Virus record (IMG/VR): IMGVR_UViG_3300009164_000061
Location: 58,377 to 78,376 of that record
From: an uncultured virus (IMG/VR IMGVR_UViG_3300009164_000061)
Lineage: Duplodnaviria > Heunggongvirae > Uroviricota > Caudoviricetes
Length of the DNA: 20,000 nt
Reading direction: 5' to 3' (one strand)
Position 1 is the stretch's first letter, and each line of letters opens with the position of its first letter. Both the position numbers and the translations under genes were made by a program. The notes below the pieces were generated by a model. That model was not told where the DNA came from. It saw nothing but the letters and a program-made list of their open reading frames with translations, and did not search any database. Of the stretch, positions 7,512 to 16,356 are shown one piece after another.

Positions 7512-7540
7512 CTCTATCAAACCAATCTAAAAAATCAACT

Positions 7541-8059: not shown

Positions 8060-8089
8060 ACTCGGCCGGTTCGGTCTCCCTAGTCCCAG

Positions 8090-8136
8090 TTGTTAATAAC
8101 TTTATTTTTCCGTGTCAATTATTATTTGTATATTTG
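8090..8136 (+). promoter_or_regulatory. Early promoter cassette (type A, short)
   Basis: TTGTTAATAAC (8090), GTGTCAA (8112)-N10-TATATTTG (8129). Confidence 0.8.
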
Positions 8137-8162
8137 TATTAACCAATCTAAACCAACCAAAC

Positions 8163-8375
8163 ATGACAGAAGAACAATCGCTAATTTTCAGCCAGGTGTT
8201 AGACACCAATTGGCAAGTTAAAGAACTAATGGACGCCAACAAATGGCTCGAGTCTTTTGAGAAAGTAAAAGAGTTAAATGCCTTAAAGCAGAAACTTAAA
8301 GAGTCAATGGGCGCGGCCGCGTACGATAAATTTATTACTACTGGCCAGAAAATGTTTGCCCCAATTCAAGATTAA
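8163..8375 (+). CDS. Hypothetical protein (start reassigned to ATG 8163)
   Basis: MTEEQSLIF... after the AACCAACCAAAC leader; the GTG at 8112 is part of the promoter repeat. Confidence 0.8.
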   Translation: MTEEQSLIFSQVLDTNWQVKELMDANKWLESFEKVKELNALKQKLKESMGAAAYDKFITTGQKMFAPIQD

Positions 8376-8935: not shown

Positions 8936-8938
8936 AAA

Positions 8939-8985
8939 TTGTTAATAACTTTATTTTTTAGTGTCAAGTATTCTTTGTATATTTG
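8939..8985 (+). promoter_or_regulatory. Early promoter cassette (type A, short)
   Basis: TTGTTAATAAC (8939), GTGTCAA (8961)-N10-TATATTTG (8978). Confidence 0.8.
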
Positions 8986-8989
8986 TATT

Positions 8990-9109
8990 ATGAATAAGCA
9001 ATCAGAAAAACCCTGCTCTCACGAAAAAACTTATGTTGCAGTACGTCACGTAAGCGGAACTAAACTTGTAAAATGTAGCAGTTGCGGAAAACCCGTATAC
9101 TGCGGATAA
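8990..9109 (+). CDS. 39-aa zinc-ribbon mini-protein, probably leaderless; not in ORF track
   Basis: MNKQSEKPCSHEKTYVAVRHVSGTKLVKCSSCGKPVYCG has CxH...CxxC; ATG is 4 nt after the -7 element. Confidence 0.65.
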   Translation: MNKQSEKPCSHEKTYVAVRHVSGTKLVKCSSCGKPVYCG

Positions 9110-9891: not shown

Positions 9892-9908
9892 TATAACCTT
9901 AAATAAGA

Positions 9909-9970
9909 AACTAAATTTGATTGGTTTGGTTGATTGATCCAGGACTGGGAACCCTAACAGGTTCCCTTTC
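9909..9970 (+). ncRNA. Candidate small RNA complementary to the early-gene leader motif
   Basis: TTTGATTGGTTTGGTTGATTGAT followed by hairpin GGGAACC-CTAACA-GGTTCCC-TTT; no ORF on either strand; expression not demonstrated. Confidence 0.4.
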
Positions 9971-10005
9971 CAGGTATTAAGAGCCAAAGTTAAATACAAG
10001 ATAAT

Positions 10006-10956
10006 ATGAAACAGATAAATTCAAAAGACGTTGTAAGAACGCTAGCCGAAAACAAAGAGGGCTATGATAAGTACGTAAACGAGATTGGTAAAAACAGACC
10101 CCTAAGCCGGGAAGAAGAGCTTGAAACCTTTGCACGAATCAAGGCTGGCGACGAGAGCGCGGTGGATAAGATTATAAAACATAACCTTCTGTTTGTTGTA
10201 ACTGTCGCAAAGAAATATCAGAACGTTGTGCAACAAGGTAGCTTGACTCTAGAAGACTTGATAAGCGAGGGTAATGTTGGGCTAGCCAAAGCGGTCCGCC
10301 GTTTTGACCCGGAAACCGGTAACAAGTTTATATCATATGCAGTATGGTGGATCAAGCAGACAATAATAGAAGCAATCAACGATCACATTAAGGTAATCCG
10401 GGTTCCAGTTAATGCAAGATACACTATGAATACGCTTAACGAGATCGAGAACGATCTGGAAATCAAGCACGGTAGACCAGTATCAGTTGAAGAATTATTG
10501 GAAGCAGCGGAGGTCCATCCAAAGATGGAAAATAAAATGAAGGTCTCGGCTCGAGTTATTTCAGAACTTAAGGGTATTAGTAGTTTTGAGAAAAGAATAG
10601 ACGATCCAATCGGTGAGGATTCCGAGGAGAAATTTTCAGACAGATTGCAATCTACGGATCTAACGGATTCCGAATTATACCGGGAAGAAAAGTCTAGAGT
10701 AATAGAGGCTATGCTTTACGGTATAAACTCCGAAACCCGGGAATGGATTAACTTGATCTATGGGCTCAACGGCTCGGAACCTCAAAGTTATAAAAGCCTT
10801 GCTGACCGATTTGAGTGTAGTCCGGAAACTATTAGACAACGAGTTAGCACGGCTCTCACTAGAATCCGCCGAACCCATAAAGATAAACTAACTTACTTTG
10901 ACCCAAATTATACTGGAAGAGATTCACAGTATAAAAGAATTAGACCGACCTGGTAA
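10006..10956 (+). CDS. RNA polymerase sigma70 factor, RpoD/SigA-like (Bacteroidota type, no region 1.1)
   Basis: Regions 1.2 to 4: LSREEELE, NLLFVVTVAKKYQ, LEDLISEGNVGL..AV.RFDP..GNKFISYAVWWIKQ, IRVPVN, C-terminal HTH SPETIRQ. Confidence 0.95.
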   Translation: MKQINSKDVVRTLAENKEGYDKYVNEIGKNRPLSREEELETFARIKAGDESAVDKIIKHNLLFVVTVAKKYQNVVQQGSLTLEDLISEGNVGLAKAVRRFDPETGNKFISYAVWWIKQTIIEAINDHIKVIRVPVNARYTMNTLNEIENDLEIKHGRPVSVEELLEAAEVHPKMENKMKVSARVISELKGISSFEKRIDDPIGEDSEEKFSDRLQSTDLTDSELYREEKSRVIEAMLYGINSETREWINLIYGLNGSEPQSYKSLADRFECSPETIRQRVSTALTRIRRTHKDKLTYFDPNYTGRDSQYKRIRPTW

Positions 10957-11023
10957 TTGTTAATAACTTTTGAAAAAAGATTCCCTAAACATTTTTTTGT
11001 TTGGGGATTTTTTGTTAGGTTTG
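10957..11023 (+). promoter_or_regulatory. Terminator-hairpin/early-promoter cassette (type B)
   Basis: TTGTTAATAAC (10957), TCCCTAAACA-Tn-TGTTTGGGGA-T6, TAGGTTTG (11016). Confidence 0.8.
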
Positions 11024-11051
11024 TATTCTAAACCAATCTAAAAAATTAATT

Positions 11052-11285
11052 ATGAAACAGGAAGTTAAAATTAAAAAAGTTTATGCGGCCGGCATTATAA
11101 ATCCAAAAGACCAATGGTCTTGGCAAGGCACAGTGGTTGCCCATTCAATAGCGGAAGCTAAAAGATTATTAACCTCATATAAAAAAGAGGATGGTATGCA
11201 GGGTCGTTGCGAGGTAATCGATATGGATGGACCTCATTATACTAATCGCCCAATCGGCGTAAGCGATACTACTCAATTATTTTAA
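11052..11285 (+). CDS. Hypothetical protein
   Basis: 77 aa directly behind the cassette. Confidence 0.75.
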   Translation: MKQEVKIKKVYAAGIINPKDQWSWQGTVVAHSIAEAKRLLTSYKKEDGMQGRCEVIDMDGPHYTNRPIGVSDTTQLF

Positions 11286-11307: not shown

Positions 11308-11436
11308 ATGATAAAGAAAATCATAACTGTCGCAATCGTAATACTATTAATAATTAAGTTTAGACTCGTTGGAGAAATTATTATTTCAGTCTTAAATTTA
11401 TTAGAGTCAATTATACAGACCCTAATCTCAATTTAA
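11308..11436 (+). CDS. 42-aa hydrophobic membrane peptide, not in ORF track
   Basis: MIKKIITVAIVILLIIKFRLVGEIIISVLNLLESIIQTLISI; typical leader; stop abuts the next cassette. Confidence 0.6.
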   Translation: MIKKIITVAIVILLIIKFRLVGEIIISVLNLLESIIQTLISI

Positions 11437-11504
11437 TTGTTAATAACTTTTTTGAAAATAATTGTGAAATAATTTTTTAGTGTCAAACCTATTTGTTATA
11501 TTTG
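11437..11504 (+). promoter_or_regulatory. Early promoter cassette (type A)
   Basis: TTGTTAATAAC (11437), GTGTCAA (11480)-N10-TATATTTG (11497). Confidence 0.8.
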
Positions 11505-11533
11505 TATTCTAAACCAATCTAAAAAAATAAATT

Positions 11534-11710
11534 ATGACAAGCAGACAAATCGCCTACCAAAAATTAGAAGAACTTCGCGAAGCAGGTTTTTCAGACACCC
11601 AAATCCTAGAAGATATTTTAGGTAATCAATTATCCGGCTCTGAAGCAGAAGAGGCAATCACTGCAACAGCTGAAGCATTTATCGAATACATGGATTTTGA
11701 TTCTGAATAA
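11534..11710 (+). CDS. 58-aa acidic protein, not in ORF track
   Basis: MTSRQIAYQKLEELREAGFSDTQILEDILGNQLSGSEAEEAITATAEAFIEYMDFDSE. Confidence 0.75.
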   Translation: MTSRQIAYQKLEELREAGFSDTQILEDILGNQLSGSEAEEAITATAEAFIEYMDFDSE

Positions 11711-12146: not shown

Positions 12147-12183
12147 CCGGAACCGGCTTTGGCCGGTTCTCCCTAGTCCCAAA

Positions 12184-12230
12184 TTGTTAATAACTTTATT
12201 TTTTAGTGTCAACTTAATTACTTATATTTG
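12184..12230 (+). promoter_or_regulatory. Early promoter cassette (type A, short)
   Basis: TTGTTAATAAC (12184), GTGTCAA (12206)-N10-TATATTTG (12223). Confidence 0.8.
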
Positions 12231-12271
12231 CTTTATCAATTATTAATCAACCCTTAAAAAAAAAATCAATC

Positions 12272-12691
12272 ATGGCAACAAGAAGCAGAATCGCAATCGA
12301 AAATTCAGACAAGACAGTATCAAGTATTTACTGTCACAGTGACGGCTACCCAGAAGGAGTCGGTCAAACCTTAATGTCTTTCTATCAGGACAGAAACAAA
12401 GTTGAAGAACTAATCGCGCTAGGCGATCTTAGTATCTTGGGAGCCCGAACAGCCCCAACCCCAGGTGTACCACATTCGTTTGATGGAGAACGCGAAAAAG
12501 GAGTAACTGTCGCCGACCACCGAGACAGAGAAGAGGATCTCCGTAGTCCCAGACTAGATGCTGGCCTAGCAGTATTCAACAGGTCAGACGTTGAAGAATA
12601 CGGATATGTATATACCCTTGAAGGAGAATGGTACATGGTAGACGGTCATAGGGATATCCGTAATTTAACACCACTCGCTGAACTATTATAA
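12272..12691 (+). CDS. Conserved phage protein of the MxTRS...YxHxDGYP family
   Basis: MATRSRIAI...SIYCHSDGYPEGVG...EEYGYVY. Confidence 0.8.
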   Translation: MATRSRIAIENSDKTVSSIYCHSDGYPEGVGQTLMSFYQDRNKVEELIALGDLSILGARTAPTPGVPHSFDGEREKGVTVADHRDREEDLRSPRLDAGLAVFNRSDVEEYGYVYTLEGEWYMVDGHRDIRNLTPLAELL

Positions 12692-12697
12692 AAATAA

Positions 12698-12730
12698 ATT
12701 TTTCCGTGTCAAAATAATTTATTATATTTA
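12698..12730 (+). promoter_or_regulatory. Early promoter (type A core, lacking the TGTTAATAAC box)
   Basis: TTTTTCCGTGTCAA (GTGTCAA at 12706)-N10-TATATTTA (12723). Confidence 0.65.
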
Positions 12731-12757
12731 CAATCAACCCCCTAAAACCAATCAATC

Positions 12758-13486
12758 ATGAGTAATAAGAGATTTGAAACAGCAGCTGGACTGCCACAGT
12801 ATTTTAAAAGTTTAGATAGAAATTCTAAACCAATCAGTAAAGAAGAAGAGCTTAAGCTTGCTAGACGGATTCAGGCTGGAGACGAGACTGCCGTTAATAT
12901 CCTGGTTACGGCCAACCTTAAGTTCGTTGTAACTCTTGCCAATAAGTTTATTGGTATGGGCTTATCAATTGAAGACTTAATTCAAGAAGGTAATGCTGGT
13001 CTTATCGAAGCTGCTCGCAAGTTTACAGCAGATAAGAATGTAAAGTTTATAACCTATGCCCAGTTCTGGATTCGCAAGAGACTAAATCTTTCTCTTTGCG
13101 AGTATGGAAGAACCGTTAGGATTCCGGTAAATCAGGAATATGCAATATACAAACAGAAGATGCTAGGTGAATCAATTAACCTAACCAATATTGCACTAGA
13201 TCGCCCAATCGGCGAGGATGGAGACAATACGCTAGGTGATCTTATCTTAAGAACAGAAGCAGTTGATCCGTTTGAATCACAGGAAACTACACAGTTTATT
13301 AATCGATTACTCGGTAAGTTAAAGGTAACCGATAGAGAAATTGTAGAATTATTCTATGGTCTAGTAGGCGATGGCTTATCTACAAAAGAAATTGCTGCTC
13401 AAGTCGGTAAAACTCCAGCGGAAGTTAATCGTTCTCTTAAAGTTGCTAGAGCTCAAATGAGAAAGGAGGTTGTATGCAAACGCTAA
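12758..13486 (+). CDS. Second RNA polymerase sigma70-family factor (shortened region 3)
   Basis: ISKEEELKLARRIQAGD, NLKFVVTLANKF, IEDLIQEGNAGLIEAARKF, KFITYAQFWIRK, VRIPVN, C-terminal HTH. Confidence 0.93.
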   Translation: MSNKRFETAAGLPQYFKSLDRNSKPISKEEELKLARRIQAGDETAVNILVTANLKFVVTLANKFIGMGLSIEDLIQEGNAGLIEAARKFTADKNVKFITYAQFWIRKRLNLSLCEYGRTVRIPVNQEYAIYKQKMLGESINLTNIALDRPIGEDGDNTLGDLILRTEAVDPFESQETTQFINRLLGKLKVTDREIVELFYGLVGDGLSTKEIAAQVGKTPAEVNRSLKVARAQMRKEVVCKR

Positions 13487-13689
13487 CTCACGCAAGCACA
13501 ATGGCCGAAATGGCGGTTGATATTCTATTCTCGGAAGGAGACCCATTCAAGGGTAAAGTAGACAGACTTAAACTATACGATGCAATTCGTCAAGCCACAT
13601 TGAAGAAATTAGTTATTGAAGACGACGATATTCTAGATGAGGAAGAATTCCAGGAATGTTTAAAGGTTTCTAAAATAGAAAACTGTTAA
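13474..13689 (+). CDS. Hypothetical protein
   Basis: 71 aa overlapping the sigma stop by 13 nt. Confidence 0.7.
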   Translation: MQTLTHASTMAEMAVDILFSEGDPFKGKVDRLKLYDAIRQATLKKLVIEDDDILDEEEFQECLKVSKIENC

Positions 13690-13749
13690 TAACTTTTAAA
13701 AAAAAGATCCCCAACCATTTTTTTGTTTGGGGATTTTTTGTTATATTTG
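13684..13749 (+). promoter_or_regulatory. Terminator-hairpin/early-promoter cassette (type B)
   Basis: TGTTAATAAC (13684), ATCCCCAACCA-Tn-TGTTTGGGGAT-T5, TATATTTG (13742). Confidence 0.8.
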
Positions 13750-13780
13750 CTCTATATTAATCAATTAACCCCAATAGACA

Positions 13781-15093: not shown

Positions 15094-15161
15094 TTGTTAA
15101 TAACTTTTGGGAAAATAGTTTAATAAAAGTTTTTTAGTGTCAAATAGATTTGTTATATTTG
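15094..15161 (+). promoter_or_regulatory. Early promoter cassette (type A)
   Basis: TTGTTAATAAC (15094), GTGTCAA (15137)-N10-TATATTTG (15154). Confidence 0.8.
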
Positions 15162-15192
15162 CTTTATCAATTAACAATCTAAAAAACAAATC

Positions 15193-15573
15193 ATGACAAC
15201 ATTCGCTTTAATTCGCTTCGGCCAAACCCCAAGTCCAATCGTATCGCAAGCATTAGCTCCGCATATCATTGGCAAAGCAGTAGCAGTACCAATTCCTGGT
15301 GCAATACTATCAATCTTCAATACTGAGTCATCAGTAGACGAGGTAAGAGAGTCAGTCCAGGCAACTGGTGTATTCTTTATCCTATCTGATCGTGCACAAT
15401 TAGCACTACCTCAACCTCTCATGGACGCAATCACAAAGGCTTTTCCAAATGATGGTGAACCAGCTAAGGAAGATAATGCTTTAACGATGGACGAAATCCT
15501 GGACCTCATAAGTCAAAATGGAATTGAGTCCCTAACTCCAGCTCAAAAGCAGCAACTAGAGAATCTCAGTTAA
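15193..15573 (+). CDS. Hypothetical protein
   Basis: 126 aa; C-terminal MDEILDLISQNGIESLT resembles the DUF6576-type 'LDKI..G..SLT' helix pair (unverified). Confidence 0.75.
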   Translation: MTTFALIRFGQTPSPIVSQALAPHIIGKAVAVPIPGAILSIFNTESSVDEVRESVQATGVFFILSDRAQLALPQPLMDAITKAFPNDGEPAKEDNALTMDEILDLISQNGIESLTPAQKQQLENLS

Positions 15574-15990: not shown

Positions 15991-15997
15991 CATACGA

Positions 15998-16066
15998 TTG
16001 TTAATAACTATTTTTAAAAATAATTCACAAATAATTTTTTAGTGTCAAACCTATTTGTTATATTTG
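15998..16066 (+). promoter_or_regulatory. Early promoter cassette (type A)
   Basis: TTGTTAATAAC (15998), GTGTCAA (16042)-N10-TATATTTG (16059). Confidence 0.8.
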
Positions 16067-16098
16067 CTTTATCAATTAACAATCTAAAAAAATAAAGT

Positions 16099-16356
16099 AT
16101 GACAAATTCAATGCAGCCCATCAACGCTCAACTCCTCAGGACAGAGTTAAATCAGCGTATCGTAAAATTCTTTTTTGTAAAGAAAGACGGCAGCCTCAGA
16201 GAGGTACATGGTACAACCAAACTTGCGCATGTTCCGGCGGACAAACATCCACAAGGAGTACGTGAAACCCCACCAAGCGTTATCACCTTCTGGGATCTTC
16301 TAGCGGGCGATTGGCGCAGTGCTAAAGTAGAAACACAATTCTTTATTAACGACTAA
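16099..16356 (+). CDS. DUF2693/WYL_2 SH3-like beta-barrel protein
   Basis: VKFFFVKKDGSLREVHGT...FWDL...DWRS matches the FxKxDGxxR...DxxxxxWRSF pattern. Confidence 0.8.
   Translation: MTNSMQPINAQLLRTELNQRIVKFFFVKKDGSLREVHGTTKLAHVPADKHPQGVRETPPSVITFWDLLAGDWRSAKVETQFFIND

Follow-up and report, generated by a model that had tools for sequence, protein, structure and literature searches.

A conserved G/U-rich element mirroring early-gene leaders lies within the predicted leader hairpin of a phage sigma-factor gene

In a phage genome, the leader of a sigma-factor gene carries a conserved RNA element, present once, that mirrors the private leader word shared by about ten of the phage's early genes. 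The element lies in a 20,000-nt window, the last 20 kb of a 78,376-base IMG/VR record (CheckV completeness estimate, 29%); positions in this window are prefixed with w. Its core is a G/U-rich "anti-leader" 26-mer on the + strand, AAATTTGATTGGTTTGGTTGATTGAT (w9913-9938), situated upstream of sigma-1, a sigma-70-family gene of 316 aa (w10006-10956, +; Pfam regions 1.2, 2, and 4; phrog_351, E 4e-50). The complementarity of the 26-mer to the early leaders is sequence-specific and conserved. The best explanation, for which belief and doubt are evenly balanced, is that the element forms part of a cis-acting structured leader that would control sigma-1, and pairing in trans with early mRNAs is a more tentative reading of the same element.

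Ten k-mers of early leaders had been proposed as perfect matches in the earlier note, and every one is a substring of the reverse complement of the 26-mer, confirmed at positions 7518, 8154, 8390, 9108, 9127, 11030, 11511, 12265, 12745, and 16601. Within the element, TTGATTG is present twice. Directly 5' of the 26-mer lie GGGTAATATAACC (w9886-9898) and then TTAAATAAG (w9899-9907), and 3' of it the inverted words GGGAACC/GGTTCCC (w9947-9953/9960-9966) are followed by TTT. Rfam covariance models returned nothing at w9892-10005, even with E up to 1. The word TAAATTTG (w9912-9919, +) matches the Bacteroidetes sigma-A -7 box TAnnTTTG, probably by chance; as a host promoter it was rejected, there being 116 such matches in 78 kb and this one lacking the GTGTCAAA plus TTGTTATATTTG context of the phage's early promoters.

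For the tests against chance, gene starts were taken from a crude custom ORF caller that accepted ATG as the only start codon, required 45 aa or more, and took the longest ORFs first, and 23 "early" genes were picked by coordinates (w7100-16700, + strand), a set that includes some leaders of a non-early type. In RNAduplex predictions the 26-mer paired with these 23 leaders at a mean of -14.1 kcal/mol, compared with -8.5 kcal/mol for the 89 other leaders of the 78-kb record and -9.8 kcal/mol for mid-gene windows, and none of 300 dinucleotide shuffles of the 26-mer reached -14.1 (mean -9.3, sd 1.15). At least 8 Watson-Crick bases in common with the 26-mer were found in 10/23 early-region leaders versus 2/89 others, the same count for shuffled 26-mers averaging 2.3/23 with a maximum of 11 in 1000 shuffles. 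The uniqueness scan took in both strands of the 78-kb record and scored 569 windows with G+T of at least 20/26; of the 50 that scored best, the sole + strand locus is w9911-9917, and the remainder are literal antisense of leaders. In a relative represented by a 128-kb contig (G001), the element is shortened and still pairs with the early leaders at -12.2 versus -7.3 kcal/mol, with 0/300 shuffles as good; the list of 965 G/T-rich windows of this contig contains no other leader-like + strand locus, G001's own shortened element falling below the filter. A check against shuffled controls, of the kind proposed in the earlier note, shows enriched complementarity to early leaders, with no shuffle as good in either genome, and the chance origin it had allowed for a low-complexity motif gives way to a signal that exceeds chance by both the shuffles and the single + strand locus among the best windows.

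Individual duplexes vary in strength. The leader of the gene at w9134 (w9104-9133, +), an example of the early type, has a predicted duplex of -18.6 kcal/mol, and its G001 ortholog one of -21.2. The best predicted trans partner in the window genome is the leader (w12728-12757, +) of a second sigma-70-family gene, sigma-2 (w12758-13486, +), at -24.6 kcal/mol with 9 + 11 Watson-Crick pairs around a 5-nt bulge. This energy drops to -16.7 and -18.3 in two relatives, so the strongest target is not conserved.

The called genes from w6100 to w19600 all lie on the + strand, except for a 64-aa minus-strand ORF (w16395-16589) that was discarded because it mirrors a leader. Gene leaders contain little G (~4-12% over -20 to -1), much A, and almost no Shine-Dalgarno (SD) sequence, and many genes are preceded by the word TTGTTATATTTG, which matches the Bacteroidetes sigma-A -7 box given as TAnnTTTG in the cited parts of PMC6847099 and PMC9723704. 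Since the leaders are of this SD-less style and the promoter word is of the TAnnTTTG type, the host is likely a Bacteroidota species, judging from these promoter and leader signals only. The sequencing runs in which at least half of the sampled words occur, X1-X3, come from freshwater metagenomes. The one RNA run among the 24 listed is a lake metatranscriptome (X24), whose contigs match exactly only at w7582-7860 (DUF6011 gene) and w10053-10242 (sigma-1), none covering w9900-9975; an RNA library thus contained the phage or at least its DNA.

Upstream of the element, an intrinsic terminator (w9401-9434, +; A-tract, 14-pair stem, U6; fold -19.4 kcal/mol, z -5.0) ends the preceding early operon. 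It is followed by a promoter-like word of the extended -10 type, TGGTATAGTATAAT ("class 3"; w9433-9446, +), whose class also stands before other genes and whose function as a promoter is putative; from it, a unit comprising a 38-aa ORF, a 91-aa ORF, and sigma-1 would start. The 38-aa ORF (w9467-9583, +) has a hydrophobic C-terminal half and is kept in both relatives described below (codon-position changes 2/4/8). The 91-aa ORF (w9616-9891, +) has no Pfam or PHROG match, shows a coding substitution pattern (8/4/22 by codon position against the relative L083), and overlaps a promoter-like motif with its stop codon. Both ORFs terminate in GGGTAA followed by a ATATAACC-like word. The overlapped motif, the internal, middle-type TGGGTAATATAACC (w9885-9898, +), is similar to GGTATA(A/T)TAACC in G001 and to AATGGTAATATAAC-ATG at other places in the record, and is followed by TTAAATAAGAAAC (w9899-9911, +) of the A-rich TAAATAA word class, the same 13-mer standing before the w6879 gene. 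TAAATAA matches lie at most 70 nt upstream of a same-strand start in 29/57 cases. A composite of GGTATA(A/T)TAACC and then (A/G)ATAAATAAC precedes many genes outside the early block, and w9885-9911 (TGGGTAATATAACCTTAAATAAGAAAC) is a close variant of it. Of the middle/late-like signal that the earlier note placed before the element, the likeness holds, the + strand GGGTAATATAACCTTAAATAAGAAAC resembling the composite GGTATA(A/T)TAACC..ATAAATAAC; its function as a promoter is deduced from this motif likeness only. A putative internal middle-type promoter at w9885-9898 would start transcription near w9900-9903. The intergenic region w9892-10005 sits between the coding 91-aa ORF and sigma-1, with terminators at w9401-9434 and w10982 and none between; the latter (w10982-11007, +), an intrinsic terminator after sigma-1, is fused to the next early promoter.

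Searches yielded two relatives: L002, on the same 128-kb contig as G001 (sigma-1 88% identical), and L083, on a 35-kb contig (sigma-1 79%). Across w9008-11540 the window is 82% identical to L083, and the flanking genes differ at ~25% of third codon positions. The three longest runs identical to L083 are w10954-11017 (64 nt), a terminator and promoter block that holds the terminator after sigma-1; w11471-11524 (54 nt), an early promoter and leader block; and w9899-9952 (54 nt), which contains the entire 26-mer and whose length equals or nearly equals that of the local promoter and terminator blocks. The region of the upstream terminator and promoter-like word, w9393-9442, has 3 differences from L083, and the stretch between the hairpin described below and the sigma-1 AUG is much less conserved. 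All 26 bases of the 26-mer are kept in L083 and 22/26 in L002, where a 4-nt deletion removes one TTGA unit. The conservation of seed and hairpin that the earlier note had made a check of its proposal was borne out by these counts and by a longer hairpin, enclosing the 7-bp one of that note, that is predicted in all three genomes, with the loss of 4 nt of the seed in L002. A link between this deletion and a shorter sigma-2 leader was rejected: L083 has the short leader yet retains the full element. The site is also spanned by variant DNA contigs from two runs, with 133 differing letters and 1 gap over 2073 nt in X4 and 206 differing letters and 20 gaps over 2426 nt in X8; they diverge from the window by 6-8.5% across w8600-11050.

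Searches for further relatives covered several collections. Among isolated phages, blastn of w6001-14000 gave no match and tblastn with sigma-1 gave matches only below 60% identity (144 records). Two scans of viral contigs with the sigma protein plus alignment left the 128-kb contig as the only close relative, and the metagenome scan recovered it again together with one new contig, L083. In a first DNA-pattern scan of viral contigs (6 loci), homologous flanks were seen by eye only in the known 128-kb relative; gapped-pattern scans of genomes and viral contigs (at least 132 loci) gave a BLAST alignment for the same contig only. For distant sigma loci, the richest 25 of 80 viral loci (L002-L081) lack a G/T-rich element of this kind in the 400 nt before the sigma gene. 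The upstream regions of distant sigma homologs fold with z below -2 in 16/101, a count taken with no control set, and some carry palindromes right after the -7 box. In three homologs of 30-50% sigma identity (L030, L039, L144), short palindromes or hairpins lie between a TAnnTTTG box and the start codon, and such palindromes before distant sigma genes could be operators or leader hairpins.

The indels of the relatives also bear on the strand that is read. The earlier note held that the element is not the leader of a minus-strand gene, and indeed the minus strand has no ATG, GTG, or TTG after the leader-like word, beyond which this strand is antisense to the 91-aa ORF. As for a lost minus-strand gene, which that note had named as a refutation, the 4-nt indel in L002 and the 1-, 2-, and 9-nt indels in L083 preclude a conserved ORF through the element. 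A minus-strand 40-aa ORF (w9877-9999) is likewise excluded by frameshifting indels in the relatives.

A free-standing, terminated sRNA gene is not supported. The apical, G+C-rich 7-bp hairpin (w9947-9966, +), which had been read together with its TTT as the end of such an sRNA, was not called by the terminator scan. It is followed by UUU only, two of the three lying inside an extended stem, whereas the phage's own terminators (w7132, w9401, w10982) consist of an A-tract, a stem, and ~6 U. The extended core (w9938-9976) folds at -18.8 kcal/mol, and in L083 the apical hairpin has U-G in place of one C-G pair, with a loop shorter by 1 nt. With intrinsic terminators and 3'UTR-derived sRNAs the site shares a G+C-rich 7-bp hairpin placed 3' of a would-be seed, and the short, partly paired U-run sets it apart from them. 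As the tail is not terminator-like, a discrete sRNA would need processing.

The structure into which the 26-mer is predicted to fold is an imperfect 81-nt hairpin (w9915-9995, +) of 31 pairs, 4 of them G-U, with the 26-mer as its 5' arm. The G/U-rich stretch is predicted to pair with w9976-9995, and the 3' arm (w9969-9995, +) spans about -11 to -37 and stops 10 nt before the sigma-1 AUG. The sigma-1 leader would be ~105 nt and unusually long. The fold of w9905-10040 has -33.1 kcal/mol (z -3.08), with 1/200 shuffles as good, and the hairpin has MFE values of -31.6 (window), -30.0 (L002), and -31.8 kcal/mol (L083). The minus-strand RNA folds at only -24.3, and each of the 4 wobble pairs is a G-U of the + strand. 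The RNAalifold consensus of the three genomes contains 30 pairs, and its unpaired columns take up every indel, one of 4 nt in L002 and two of 2 and 1 nt in L083. Substitutions in consensus pairs leave 2 kept as U-G and 1 broken, and among these three close genomes 0/30 consensus pairs show a compensatory double change. Compared with L083, the 5' arm has 0 changes and the 3' arm 3 to 4, which break one pair, alter one bulge, and delete 2 nt from a bulge. Shuffling the 5' arm only gave a fold as good in 3.3% of 1000 shuffles (p about 0.03), and 22 other anti-leaders swapped in as the 5' arm were all less stable (-21 to -30 versus -31.6). Taken as a prediction, the cis structure has moderate support.

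Under the preferred cis-acting reading, the 26-mer would be the 5' arm of a conserved ~81-nt stem-loop filling the sigma-1 leader, which would be transcribed from the internal middle-type motif (w9885-9898) or by read-through from the w9433 motif. In Flavobacterium johnsoniae, according to the cited parts of Baez et al. 2019 (PMC6847099), secondary structure tunes initiation and the region from -20 to +20 tends to be unpaired. Initiation in the likely host would be SD-independent and favor a region left unpaired from about -20 to +20. A leader folded in this way would therefore lower sigma-1 translation or set its timing, and may double as a processing site. Promoter and transcript of this leader are inferred, as is its influence on translation. 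As in structured leaders that mask initiation, a stable hairpin is predicted between promoter and start codon, with its 3' arm reaching into -20 to -11. Unlike in such leaders, -10 to -1 and the start codon remain free (the 3' arm overlaps the initiation region up to -11, at w9995, and the AUG begins at w10006), and the 5' arm mirrors a motif of many other phage mRNAs. Points against the cis reading are the 0 compensatory changes, the arm-shuffle p of about 0.03, and the start codon outside the stem. In addition, cis pairing alone does not predict the asymmetry of conservation between the 5' and 3' arms, and a cis-only role leaves unexplained why the 5' arm is an exact mirror of the consensus early leader. 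Local alignment of the sigma-1 leader with the reverse complement of the 5' arm scored 5, a value that 75% of random windows also reach; with this random-level score, a 3' arm derived from a decayed early-type leader, as well as arms forming a DNA inverted repeat or MITE, was rejected. Because sigma-1's own leader is not of the early type, the mirror likeness is not a mere by-product of cis pairing. If the element acts in cis only, it would be a structured leader of an ordinary kind, placed before a key regulator and having a curious sequence history.

A second reading, possible but on balance doubtful, is that a + strand RNA containing w9913-9938, either the sigma-1 leader or a processed fragment of it, would pair in trans with the SD-less early mRNAs and shut them down as middle transcription starts. 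Trans pairing with the early leaders appears thermodynamically feasible in the models. The full leader gives a dimer-minus-monomers energy of -8 kcal/mol or better with 10/23 early-region versus 10/89 other leaders, and the short RNA with 11/23 versus 10/89. The specificity of the complementarity in both genomes, its enrichment among early-region leaders, and its position as the only non-self + strand locus among the best G/T-rich windows all favor this reading, as does a 5' arm perfectly kept in L083 where its cis partner is not. The non-early type of sigma-1's own leader points the same way, and a location downstream of a middle-type promoter-like motif would fit the timing. However, the 3' end is not terminator-like, and the element is mostly paired in prediction, with a mean P(unpaired) over w9913-9938 of 0.34 in the full leader and 0.39 in the short RNA. 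Moreover, the energy of the best target is not conserved, L002 is without 4 nt of the would-be seed, and the early leaders are low-complexity and A/C-rich, so that any G/U-rich RNA pairs with them somewhat.

The literature retrieved by our search, in the portions it covers, describes no phage RNA as acting on a whole early regulon. In the cited parts of PMC12197685, c4 of phages P1/P7 is a processed 77-nt antisense RNA that carries its complementary bases in loops, has one target mRNA (ant), and belongs to an immunity circuit; like the trans role considered here, it is a phage RNA complementary to the sequence around a ribosome-binding site that blocks translation, and its function needs its own secondary structure. 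The sigma-1 element differs in that its complementary bases lie in a predicted stem rather than in loops, and that its potential partners are about ten early leaders, plus its own leader, with initiation regions that lack an SD. In phage T4, many initiation regions are repressed by RegA, and RegB cuts GGAG in early Shine-Dalgarno sequences (PMC3014915, cited parts), and the likeness, in logic only, is that many early mRNAs are inactivated together via a common feature of their initiation regions. T4 uses proteins and an SD motif; here an RNA and an A/C-rich, SD-less leader are proposed. If pairing in trans takes place, the element would be an RNA counterpart of T4 RegA and RegB. To our knowledge, Bacteroidota phages cannot regulate translation through a Shine-Dalgarno handle, and we know of no account of how they shut off their early genes. 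The P1/P7 c4 RNA is co-transcribed upstream of its target.

Roles in cis and in trans are not exclusive, and their occurrence together is unlikely without being far-fetched. A specific form of this combination, which we regard as decidedly unlikely, is a two-way RNA switch in which the G/U-rich arm of the sigma-1 leader would either mask sigma-1 in cis or pair with early leaders in trans. The predicted trans duplexes (-14 to -24.6 kcal/mol) exceed the roughly -12.8 kcal/mol added by the lower stems. In such a switch, sigma-1 translation would be opened by early transcripts that are themselves silenced by the same pairing, and one RNA element would govern when a large freshwater phage of Bacteroidota type passes from early to middle expression, with no SD involved.

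It is improbable that the hairpin is an intercistronic processing site or mRNA stabilizer of the RNase III type, separating sigma-1 from the upstream cistrons, with the anti-leader likeness incidental. T7 early mRNA carries RNase III-type processing hairpins, and here too a 31-pair interrupted stem would lie between two cistrons of one inferred transcription unit, the stem being conserved and specific to the + strand RNA. However, this would leave the mirror likeness to the early leaders unexplained, and no like hairpin was shown in other intergenic regions of the record.

Very improbable is a DNA-level site, in the form of a CAATC/GATTG-rich word read in either orientation by a phage regulator, or an early leader cassette left behind as an inverted relic with no function. 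The promoter-leader cassettes of early genes occur in many copies that cross-match in BLAST, so an inverted fragment could arise by recombination, and TTGATTG occurs twice in the element, but the leader word precedes promoterless internal genes (w8399, w8636) and apart from this site occurs in sense orientation only, which points to RNA rather than DNA, the inverted word has no promoter box, and where divergence is about 18-25%, a relic would not keep 54 nt unchanged.

The repeated early cassette consists of TTGTTAATAACTTT, a T-run, (A/C)GTGTCAA, ~9 nt, and TTGTTATATTTG, followed by a leader with AACCAATC. Its copies at w7441-7544, 8064-8181, 8936-9004, 10954-11058, 11434-11540, 12168-12252, 12681-12775, 13678-13762, 15094-15199, and 15997-16106 are among the best-conserved blocks. 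The minus-strand TTGACA matches of a sigma-70 scan arise because the cassette's GTGTCAA reads TTGACAC on the other strand. At w7132-7180, 10982-11020, and 13699-13745, terminator hairpins with CCC..GGGG stems have a U-run that continues into the early promoter box TTTTTTGTTATATTTG, so that terminator and early promoter are fused in one conserved block.

Other initiation signals of the phage depart from the early type. An ORF at w13474-13689, overlapping the end of sigma-2, is preceded by AGAAAGGAGGTTGT (w13455-13473), a strong SD-like word that is kept in G001 and is exceptional in a genome otherwise without Shine-Dalgarno sequences. Upstream of the window, (T)AGTATAATA words lie only 13 nt before the ATG of several + strand genes (G000:C1:35454, 36773, 39910, 45553), which suggests that this gene class has very short or absent leaders. 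In G001, a G-rich tandem-like word at C1:82817-82842 (G001:C1:82817-82842), containing GGTTGGGTATA twice, lies in a G+C-rich island just past the point corresponding to the end of the window's record.
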